From an uncultured bacterium (GTDB lineage Bacteria; SAR324; NAC60-12), in the NCBI GenBank assembly GCA_964010765.1, contig CAXGMD010000018.1:1-42718 (forward strand): a DNA stretch of 42,718 bases, read 5' to 3'. Below, one piece after another: positions 1-2,437 of the stretch. The stretch's first letter is position 1. The number at the start of each line of letters is the position of its first letter. The translations under genes were made by a program, and so were the position numbers. A model generated the notes under the pieces. That model was not told the origin of the DNA. It saw only the letters and a list, made by a program, of their open reading frames with translations, and did no database searches.

Positions 1-1409
1 TAGATTAAATAAACGCCTGTATCCCCCTCCGAAACTAACCAGTCCTTCAGTGAAAACGTGATTTGCTTGTTCGGATCTTGGTTAAGCATTCCATATTTGA
101 TCGCTGCAACTGCCACCTTACGAGTTGTAGATTCGATTTCCTCATCAGACCAACTTTCTCGATGTGACTCAAGGTAGTTGTTTCGCACAAAATCACACAT
201 TTCCTGCTGTAGTTTCGAAAACAGGATGACGTTTCCGGCCCTAGAACTCATCTTGCCTTCGGGCAGTACTACTAAGGCATATGGCAGATGAAAACAACGG
301 CTAGCCTGTTCATATCCCATCTTCTTTAGTGCCGCAAACACCTGCTGAAAATGAAGAGTTTGTTCAGCACCAACTACATAGATCGAACGTTCTATCCCAA
401 ATTCTTCGAACTTCCGCTTGGCAAGTGCTAAATCTTTAGTTGAATAGAGCGTATTGCCATCAGATTTCAGCAGAAGGAAAAAACCCAGTTTTTCATCATT
501 TAAATCAACGCCTATCGCCCCATCTGATCTTTGAAAAAGGCCATCCTCGGCCCCTTGGATAACTAACTGTTTGCCCTCTTCATCAACTTCAGATTCATAA
601 AAGACATGATCGAACTCTGTTCCCAGCCATCTATAGATCTGATCAAAATCCTCCAAAGACCAATTTCTTGTCTCCTCCCAGATCTGAGTTATCTGAGGCT
701 CTTTCTCTTCTAACTTAGCGAGTAAAGAACTAATTTTCTTCTGAGTTTCTTCCTTCTCTGGTCCAGTTTGCCCTTCCAAGGCCAAGGTTGATGCAGTGTA
801 AAGTTCGCCCAGCCATTCCCCCTTACGGACAGATGGAGGAACTGCGTTATTTTTTTCTTGGTAGTACCAGAGGCATTTAGCGATGTGAGTTCCAACATCG
901 CCTATATAGTTTGCAGCAATTACTTGGTAGCCATTGTAGCGGAATAACCGAACCAGACTATCTCCAAGAGCAACATTTCTACAATGGCCGACATGAAAAC
1001 CCTTGTGGGTATTGGGCTGGGAAAACTCGATCATCACTCGAGTTTTCTGCTCTATGGAGTTCTTTGAAAACCAATTCCCTTTATGAACTTCAGGTAACAC
1101 CTGCTTAGCCATTTCGGATGAATTAACTTTCACATTCAGATAGGGTCCAAGCGAGGAAAAACTCTCAAAAAGGTTTGATTCAGTGAAATTTTCTTGAAGA
1201 GCGAGCATTAATTCATTGGCAATTTGCGCTGGGGCTTTTCTGAAAACTTTTGCAAGGGTAAAGCATGGGAAAGCGTAGTCACCCATGTCCTTCTGTGGGG
1301 GAGTCTCAATTAACCCAACCAGTGATTCCAAAGTACATTCATAATCGGGTTGAAGTTTAAGCAGGTTTTGGTGGATACCAACCCCAAGACTTCGTACAAA
1401 AATATTCAT
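1..1409 (-). CDS. argS: Arginine--tRNA ligase (3' end runs off the window)
   Basis: Not in the ORF track. Manual translation from ATG at 1409 (MNIFVRSLGVG...) is open to the window edge and contains GDYAFPCF, IEFSQPNTHKGFHVGH (HIGH motif), LKSDGNTLYSTKDLA, YVVGAEQ and GKMSSRAG (KMSKS-like). Confidence 0.95.
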   Translation of the reverse strand, partial: MNIFVRSLGVGIHQNLLKLQPDYECTLESLVGLIETPPQKDMGDYAFPCFTLAKVFRKAPAQIANELMLALQENFTESNLFESFSSLGPYLNVKVNSSEMAKQVLPEVHKGNWFSKNSIEQKTRVMIEFSQPNTHKGFHVGHCRNVALGDSLVRLFRYNGYQVIAANYIGDVGTHIAKCLWYYQEKNNAVPPSVRKGEWLGELYTASTLALEGQTGPEKEETQKKISSLLAKLEEKEPQITQIWEETRNWSLEDFDQIYRWLGTEFDHVFYESEVDEEGKQLVIQGAEDGLFQRSDGAIGVDLNDEKLGFFLLLKSDGNTLYSTKDLALAKRKFEEFGIERSIYVVGAEQTLHFQQVFAALKKMGYEQASRCFHLPYALVVLPEGKMSSRAGNVILFSKLQQEMCDFVRNNYLESHRESWSDEEIESTTRKVAVAAIKYGMLNQDPNKQITFSLKDWLVSEGDTGVYLI

Positions 1410-1500
1410 GATGGATCGAAGTAGTATTCAGAAAAAAACAAAAATGATCCAAAAAATTGCAGGAAAAAGGCAAGTTTGATCAAGAAATGGAAAGGTAAGA

Positions 1501-1667
1501 AGGGGGGGCGGATTGCACACGTCCAAGAGGCACCCCTCCCCTTTTCCGAGGCAATCCGCTAAAGGTCGCCAACCATAGGGTTGGAGACCAGAGAGCAGGC
1601 CAATGTCCCGAGGAGCACCCCTCTCCTCAACTGGGCGACCCGCCCATAACCGCCCAGTTAGGCGGCT
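1501..1667 (-). ncRNA. Putative structured RNA (four hairpins, twin AGGGGUG loops); either a standalone sRNA or the argS leader
   Basis: GC-rich island in an AT-rich spacer. Hairpins at 1648-1667, 1593-1645, 1564-1589 and 1508-1559. Several G-U pairs form only on the minus strand. The loop is identical at 1616-1622 and 1531-1537. Confidence 0.7.
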
Positions 1668-1948: not shown

Positions 1949-2437
1949 ATGACTTTGGATAATTTCGAACCTGAACAACTTCCTGGTTTCCAATTTATTG
2001 ATCATGTGGCAATTGCAGTACTGCAAGGAACCTTGGATGCACAAGTGAATGCCTATCGAAGAATGGGATTTCGTGAATTACATAGAGAGGAGGTTCTAGG
2101 CAATGACCAAGTGAGGGAGGTCCTTCTGCAAATAGGTAAGAGCCAGAACCTGATTCAGTTGCTGGAGCCTCTGAATGATAGTTCACCAGTGCAGAAGATG
2201 ATTGATCGGCAAAATGGCAAAGGTGGCCTAGCCCATGTAGGACTGAGAGTCAAAAGTGCTCAAGAGGCTTATCAATATCTCTCTGAAAACGGATTTCGTT
2301 TGATTGATGCTGGTCCCCGGCCTGGGTCTAGAGGAACAACAATCTTTTTTGTACACCCAAAATCAAGAGATGATCACCCTTTCGGAGTCCTCTACGAAAT
2401 TGTCGAAGATCCGAATGACAAATTAAAAGAAGATTGA
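1949..2437 (+). CDS. mce: Methylmalonyl-CoA epimerase (VOC family)
   Basis: IDHVAIAV, IQLLEP, GGLAHVG, PRPGSRG..IFFVHPKS..GVLYEIVE match MCE metal-binding motifs. GGGAG RBS upstream. Confidence 0.85.
   Translation: MTLDNFEPEQLPGFQFIDHVAIAVLQGTLDAQVNAYRRMGFRELHREEVLGNDQVREVLLQIGKSQNLIQLLEPLNDSSPVQKMIDRQNGKGGLAHVGLRVKSAQEAYQYLSENGFRLIDAGPRPGSRGTTIFFVHPKSRDDHPFGVLYEIVEDPNDKLKED

Follow-up and report, generated by a model that had tools for sequence, protein, structure and literature searches.

Upstream of the arginyl-tRNA synthetase gene (argS) of an uncultured SAR324 bacterium lies a structured element that is a new RNA family, narrow in its range and of hypothetical function. It folds into four local hairpins on the argS strand, two of which are paralogous modules with one invariant loop, and it evolves more slowly than the sequence on either side of it. 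The reading tentatively preferred here is that it acts in cis, as a leader of argS whose loops bind a factor; this is considered possible rather than probable, and it is weighed below against three others.

Locus and anatomy

The window, by which is meant the whole 42,718-nucleotide stretch that was analysed, belongs to the genome referred to here as G000; G001, G003 and the like denote other genomes compared with it. The element is a GC-rich island running from 1667 to 1508 on the minus strand, within a 539-nt divergent spacer that has argS on one side and a glyoxalase-family gene on the other (Table 1), and in which no tRNA or tmRNA was found. Its borders are sharp, the GC content being 0.61-0.62 in 1501-1650 compared with 0.28-0.35 in the flanks. 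Such an island in an AT-rich spacer, with four hairpins (A to D) and two AGGGGUG loops, had been proposed in the first-pass annotation, and all of these features are present at the proposed coordinates with the sequence in agreement. Two of the quantities given there need adjusting. The seven G-U pairs were counted again in G000 (four in the basal stem of B, two in A and one in the inner stem of D), but a U-G pair in the 2-bp mini-helix of D brings the number to eight; and the distance from the end of the element to the argS ATG, which had been put at about 90 nt, is 98 nt when measured from D to the ATG at 1409. The 3' part of argS is truncated by the start of the window; its ATG occupies 1407-1409, and the predicted start (MNIFV...) is common to relatives. 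As to the tRNA complement of G000, ARAGORN reports 32 tRNAs, including tRNA-Pyl(cta), tRNA-SeC(tca) and a tRNA-Arg with the anticodon GCG, not ACG.

Table 1. Features of the argS upstream region in the window
Feature	Position	Strand	Description
argS (arginyl-tRNA synthetase)	3..1409	-	Pfam tRNA-synt_1d 7.5e-51, Arg_tRNA_synt_N 1.1e-13
Spacer	1410..1507	-	98 nt from element to argS ATG; unstructured, 76% pyrimidine, C >> G, no SD
Long module D	1508..1559	-	Best conserved; 9-bp basal stem, UC/GG mini-helix, GGAA bulge
Module D tip	1531..1537 (loop)	-	Loop AGGGGUG; 6-bp inner stem AAGGGG/CCUCUU
Hairpin C	1564..1589	-	11-bp stem, one U.C mismatch in G000, 4-nt loop
Long module B	1593..1645	-	10-bp basal stem (4 G-U), CCC/GGG mini-helix, AGUU bulge
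Module B tip	1616..1622 (loop)	-	Loop AGGGGUG; 6-bp inner stem GAGGAG/CUCCUC
Hairpin A	1648..1667	-	8-bp stem (AGCCGCCU/GGGCGGUU), 4-nt loop
Glyoxalase-family gene	1949..2437	+	

Fold and strand

Copies of the element in eight metagenome contigs and in five genomes of the genus to which the window belongs together provided ten distinct sequences (alignment A3). RNAalifold applied to these ten recovered the same four local hairpins unaided, and standard pairs account for 96.5% of the 550 pair cells, compared with 37-53% when the partners are slid by 1-3 columns. Collection of the corresponding intergenic regions of relatives and a covariation test of the stems had been suggested at the outset, and the outcome is positive: eight pairs are altered in both partners, compared with 2.2 +/- 1.2 after shuffling and with none of 500 shuffles reaching eight, in an alignment of low diversity that comprises effectively two lineages (G001 versus the rest) together with strain-level variants, and in which most of the double changes stem from the divergent G001 alone and so represent few independent events. 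Hairpin A is paired in nine of the ten aligned sequences, its closing U-G pair becoming U-A in two of them, and in its place G001 has a different hairpin that is misaligned in A3. In hairpin C, 4 of the 11 pairs are altered on both sides across the alignment.

Taken singly the sequence is unconvincing, and it is the comparative data that settle the four-hairpin fold as real. With one sequence only, the z-scores are weak on both strands (minus, -2.84; plus, -3.25), and the minimum-free-energy structure is another, long-range fold which cross-pairs the paralogous modules and lies 10-16 kcal/mol lower. The local hairpins are favoured over it because of covariation such as that at the fifth pair of the B basal stem, where a G-to-A change in three sequences turns G-U into A-U and, read from the sequence, would yield A.C in the long-range fold. 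The named helices contain 73 G-U cells but only 3 A-C cells, and for the four-hairpin fold, which amounts to -73 kcal/mol in G000, the minus-strand RNA is the more stable by 19-26 kcal/mol in all ten sequences; the RNA strand is therefore that of argS. Covariation, the ratio of G-U to A-C cells and the RNAalifold result thus bear out the earlier proposal of an RNA-level structure on the minus strand.

Paralogous modules and the invariant loop

Modules B and D are paralogues of about 52 nt, and the general layout is one in which short hairpins (A and C) alternate with long modules. In G001 the layout is long-short-long-short-long, with three of the long modules and two short hairpins. Each module is made up of a basal stem, a 2-3-bp CC/GG mini-helix, a 4-nt bulge (NGAA or AGUU), a 6-bp inner stem that is G-rich on one side and C/U-rich on the other, and the loop. 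A covariance model made from D-type modules (R1; 61 positions, 17 pairs) detects every B module too, at 20-57 bits; within the window D scores 88.8 bits and B 28.9 bits, and the G001 counterpart of B scores 56.7 bits. The internal duplication that had been suspected is thus upheld by R1 and by the third module of G001. When 21 modules (19 of them distinct) are aligned to R1, 99% of cells pair and both partners vary in 9 of the 17 pairs (4.3 +/- 1.2 after shuffling), seven of these nine belonging to the basal stem, in an alignment which, being fitted to R1, leans towards the modelled structure. Near-unchanged throughout are most of the inner stem, the CC/GG mini-helix and the loop itself, which reads AGGGGUG in 21 of 21 modules. 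A scaffold that drifts around a fixed tip indicates sequence-specific recognition of that tip, in the manner of a site for a protein or a ligand. A G-quadruplex at the RNA level was rejected on inspection, since the G-tracts are not kept between the B modules of the two lineages.

Conservation, copy number and range

Among 12 close variants the mean pairwise identity is 0.935 in the element (35 of 162 columns vary), compared with 0.873 in the 280 nt upstream, 0.865 in the spacer and, within argS, 0.847 at codon position 3 and 0.942 at position 1. The element evolves at about half the rate of its flanks and, judged from these identities, is under purifying selection.

BLAST, pattern and module-model searches all give a single copy in G000, and there is one locus in each of the four other genomes that carry the element, so that it is not a REP or MITE sequence, as many dispersed copies would have implied. 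A pattern search and a model search (the latter with stricter filters) of 88 genomes of the phylum placed it only in the window's genus, where 5 of 9 genomes have it, G000 included. In G002 the contig ends at the equivalent of window position 1680, at the edge of the element, and the 5' part of argS is unassembled; G004 and G006 (67-68% complete) have neither flank in their assemblies. The contig of G002 that bears the glyoxalase side (C571) ends within about 13 nt of the element edge, a position which suggests that short-read assembly fails at or near the element. Hairpins of at least 5 bp with an AGGGGUG loop number three in the G000 genome, two of them in the element, and seven control loops give 1-11 hairpins each, so that elsewhere in the genome such hairpins are not above chance.

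Searches further afield yielded no additional member. A scan of contigs for two loop words with a 60-90-nt gap returned at least 122 stretches, and the pattern is thus unspecific; R1, run on 80 of these at least 122 loci, found no real module, the best score being 24.3 bits at a Streptomyces locus picked by the pattern itself. Three single pattern matches in viral contigs were without the module fold. A match of 29.5 bits in G087 was attributed to chance, lying as it does inside a coding sequence that resembles serine hydroxymethyltransferase (a name read from the translation), and the one-mismatch pattern matches in G003 and G008 were set aside since both fall within coding regions. A dispersed, partly tandem family of G-rich repeats was seen in G033, a member of the same order, on contigs C5, C8, C9 and C14, with units such as GGGAGGGGTGCTGTT flanked by GC hairpins. 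These repeats and the argS element have the core word GGGAGGGGTGC in common; they were judged unrelated, as they reach only 12-15 bits with R1 and the fold is absent.

Genomic context

In all 13 copies (five genomes and eight metagenome contigs) the distance from the element to the argS ATG downstream of it is 84-100 nt, and the two are on the same strand. The order of element and argS is kept even in G001, though the N-terminus of its ArgRS is only 42% identical. There the neighbours upstream are different, namely a pair of small ORFs in the same orientation, and the first module begins 14 nt past the stop codon of a co-directional ORF. These small ORFs have weak PHROG matches (phrog_25389, E 0.0086; phrog_876, a transcriptional repressor, E 0.0006). 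In the congener G003 the N-terminus of ArgRS is 93% identical and argS is intact, but the element is absent: homology to G000 ends about 55 nt before the argS ATG, and the element was not found anywhere in the assembly, which is 88% complete. An intact argS without the element means that the latter is dispensable and separable from the gene. Directly upstream of argS in G003 (contig C169, 370-480) are AT-rich imperfect repeats of the tatactatag type, and the AT-rich stretch, which replaces both the element and the glyoxalase side, has two small minus-strand ORFs. Neither has a PHROG match, and a phage-like nature for the insert is consequently unsupported.

In G000 no transposase or integrase adjoins the element. 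In 11 other genera of the family about 100 nt separate argS from an infA- or mreB-like gene (identities read from the translated upstream sequence), and the element is absent; the genus that bears it has moved argS to a new neighbourhood. On the far side of the element, a block of about 50 nt at 1745-1795 is near-invariant in all 12 close variants and holds a perfect TTGACA together with the palindrome CATAAA-CAA-TTTATG. The block may serve the glyoxalase/epimerase side as a promoter or operator, and a contig from RNA library X9 starts inside it, at 1750.

The spacer and transcription

The pyrimidine fraction of the G000 spacer exceeds that of all 1973 upstream regions of the genome, and its excess of C over G lies at the 98th percentile. 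In nine variants of the G000 type the spacer is 73-76% pyrimidine, at or above the 99.9th percentile, with a C-G excess at the 97th-99th percentile; that of G001, unrelated in sequence, has a pyrimidine content of 67% (99.2nd percentile) and the highest C-G excess. Where a genus lacks the element, the pyrimidine fraction of its argS leader is 0.48-0.66, some leaders being fairly rich (0.61-0.66), so that pyrimidine richness of the argS leader is stronger where the element is present, though it is not exclusive to such genomes. The spacer has a fold z-score of -1.42 in G000 (range -1.42 to +1.45), and there is no terminator-like site between the element and argS. The predicted duplex of the G-rich strand with the spacer is of ordinary energy, being equalled by 2-16% of background regions. 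Rho is encoded in the genome. Initiation at a start codon without an SD is not unusual here, an SD core being found in about 27% of 1995 long ORFs as against 7% in the background. Pairing of GGGGUG with the anti-SD CACCUC, as an SD mimic or a standby site, is speculation, and the anti-SD in question is assumed, the G000 assembly having no 16S gene or 3' end. A leader peptide was rejected, the only ORFs on either strand being of 21-38 codons with no run of Arg.

Scanning for promoter consensus sequences gave no match on the minus strand. Weak consensus readings made by hand are TTGGAT-N18-AATACT for argS and TTGCTA-N18-TATCAC for the element, neither of which the scan reports. In G000 a 6-bp inverted repeat, UGGAUC/GAUCCA (1402-1440, minus strand), brackets some 40 nt immediately upstream of the argS ATG; it is kept in G003 and weakened in G007. 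RNA-library contigs cover part of the stretch in 17 rows, many of which come from one habitat and year and may represent one campaign. Such contigs show neither strand nor ends, and with DNA carry-over possible they are to be read accordingly: X1 (900-1828) and X5 (900-2420) bridge the element and argS; X7 consists of separate pieces, 1326-1476, which reaches 67 nt upstream of the ATG, and 1546-1700, which covers most of the element; and the argS contig of X9 stops at 1418, the interval 1419-1749 without a contig being no finding.

Relation to known RNA families

Rfam gives no match across the whole window at the gathering score, and at E <= 10 only noise for 1350-1950 and for the G001 locus, in keeping with the first reading of this DNA, which had recognised no T-box, SRP, 6S, tmRNA or CsrB-type signature. 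The genome's own 6S RNA (C53:19517-19696, 62.9 bits) and SRP RNA (C34:7653-7747, 49.5 bits) genes are located elsewhere. Excerpts from the full-text literature contain no report of such an element for SAR324 small RNAs or argS leaders.

T-box leaders (Rfam RF00230) control argS in Firmicutes, and the present element resembles them in being a multi-hairpin RNA upstream of argS on the same strand. It differs in having no RF00230 match, even at E <= 10, and no terminator or antiterminator nearby. Pairing of the G-rich loop with tRNA-Arg was rejected, as none of six words of 5-6 nt complementary to the loop and stem occurs in the four tRNA-Arg genes. The G000 genome likewise shows no enrichment of the motif complementary to the loop, and the suggestion that the loops pair with C-rich targets is without support on either count.

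The thrS operator of Escherichia coli is the autoregulatory leader of threonyl-tRNA synthetase; its hairpins mimic the anticodon arm of tRNA-Thr and abut the ribosome binding site. Here too there is a structured element, putatively a leader, before an aminoacyl-tRNA synthetase gene, at a unique genomic site, with two similar hairpin domains, both of which are recognised by one protein in the case of thrS. The argS element, however, ends 98 nt from a start codon that lacks an SD, and AGGGGUG is unlike any of the tRNA-Arg anticodon loops of this genome (CUUCUAA, CUUCGGA, UUGCGGU and UUCCUAA), lacking both a U at loop position 2 and an Arg anticodon, when judged by the identity rules for tRNA-Arg.

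The TwoAYGGAY motif and the CsrB/RsmZ sponges are multi-hairpin RNAs with one repeated loop. As in these, tandem hairpins show the same short purine-rich loop, and modules arise by duplication and vary in number among species. In contrast, the argS element has GGGG in its loop, not GGA or AYGGAY, it has only 2-3 modules and no Rfam match, and it is tied to one gene, whereas CsrB-type RNAs are free-standing with a terminator. A sponge for CsrA was rejected on the loop sequence and on distribution, CsrA (PF02599) being found in 44 of 45 genomes of the family and the element in one genus. The ANTAR target consists of two adjacent hairpins with 6-nt loops that have A at position 1 and G at position 4. 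AGGGGUG has A1 and G4 but is 7 nt long, and the hairpins are about 85 nt apart; a search for ANTAR proteins (PF03861) gave no match in G000, nor did the control match any genome.

Rho-dependent termination is a feature of the leaders of mgtA in Salmonella and ribB in E. coli and of the CsrA-pgaA leader. The likeness lies in the arrangement: a structured sensor, then an unstructured tract rich in C and poor in G that leads up to the start codon, with no intrinsic terminator; it is one of composition alone, and differs from those systems in that neither Rho action nor a ligand has been seen for the argS element. When the element is considered as a riboswitch, the stems covary and the core is invariant, at low sequence diversity, and an expression platform is absent: there is no terminator, the spacer is unstructured and there is no SD to sequester.

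Possible roles of the element

If the element is a cis-acting leader, it would be part of a long 5' leader of argS, transcribed on the argS strand. The invariant loops would then be bound by a single factor acting in trans, most simply a protein (ArgRS, for instance), and their occupancy would alter events on the pyrimidine-rich spacer, either by way of Rho loading on a rut-like tract, leading to premature termination, or by way of S1-type, SD-independent ribosome entry. Either output step is suggested by the composition of the spacer only. The leader is ranked first because the element keeps its position, no terminator intervenes and the spacer has an unusual composition that is conserved; a unique AGGGGUG site beside one gene fits a gene-specific operator, and the RNA-library contigs that bridge the element and argS lend weak backing, of no known strand and possibly from DNA. 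Against this, argS of G003 shows that the element is not needed for expression of the gene, neither a terminator nor an SD to sequester provides a recognisable expression platform, pairing of the spacer with the G-rich strand is unremarkable, some leaders of other genera, which lack the element, are also fairly pyrimidine-rich and no promoter has been placed. As for the identity of the factor, ArgRS is the simplest guess, with no support from the loop sequence, in which nothing resembles tRNA-Arg. The choice offered by the first-pass annotation, between a small RNA and an argS leader, leans towards the leader on position and on the pyrimidine-rich spacer, with G003 showing that the element is dispensable.

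A free-standing small RNA, some 170-200 nt long and made from a promoter of its own, whose two or three identical G-rich loops titrate an RNA-binding protein or pair in trans, is a doubtful though by no means negligible alternative, on which the position beside argS would be inherited synteny only. The discrete island with sharp borders is what would be expected of it, repeated modules with one invariant loop recall multi-site decoy RNAs, and an RNA-library piece covers most of the element; the neighbourhood, moreover, has broken once upstream (G001) and once downstream (G003), so that linkage to argS is not absolute. However, there is no intrinsic terminator after the element and no promoter was found, elsewhere in the genome neither AGGGGUG hairpins above chance nor an enrichment of complementary sites points to a regulon, and the GGGG of the loops and the mismatch between a near-universal CsrA and an element of one genus do not fit a CsrA decoy. 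In G001, where the element follows so closely on a stop codon, it looks intercistronic.

The invariant loop and the strand-specific G-U signal are poorly accommodated by either of the two remaining explanations. A purely structural role, in which the hairpins guard the argS message from nucleases or direct its processing with no sensing involved, whether from its 5' end or, in G001, from between cistrons, is unlikely. The great stability of the fold, the leader or intercistronic position and the dispensability in G003 are all compatible with it, but a stabiliser needs stems and not sequence, and the invariance of loop and inner stem while the basal stems drift points to sequence-specific recognition. 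It is very improbable indeed that the element is what remains of a mobile or repetitive sequence, or a site acting at the DNA level, with no RNA function of its own. The restriction to one genus, the rearranged neighbourhoods of G001 and G003 and the core word shared with the dispersed repeats of G033 might be so explained; yet every carrier genome has a single copy, no transposase or integrase adjoins it in G000, the G033 repeats score poorly on the module model and lack the fold, the element evolves more slowly than its flanks, and the preponderance of G-U over A-C cells reflects selection on one RNA strand and not on duplex DNA.

Implications

To our knowledge, little is known of the control of synthetase genes outside the Firmicutes and a few E. 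coli paradigms, and nothing for uncultured marine lineages. It is decidedly unlikely, though conceivable, that the element represents a riboregulator of a new class, distinct from the T-box and serving an aminoacyl-tRNA synthetase gene, in which tandem G-loop hairpins would sense ArgRS or the status of arginine or tRNA-Arg and gate Rho loading or SD-independent entry, with the number of modules tuning cooperativity. The weight of the finding is limited by its occurrence in one genus only, by its dispensability in a close relative and by a role that is hypothetical. What the element does constitute is a cleanly defined RNA family without an Rfam entry, with an invariant loop, a clear history of duplication and an odd, pyrimidine-rich putative leader lacking an SD, and it provides a concrete object for biochemistry, in the factor that would bind the loops and in the action of Rho or S1 on the spacer.
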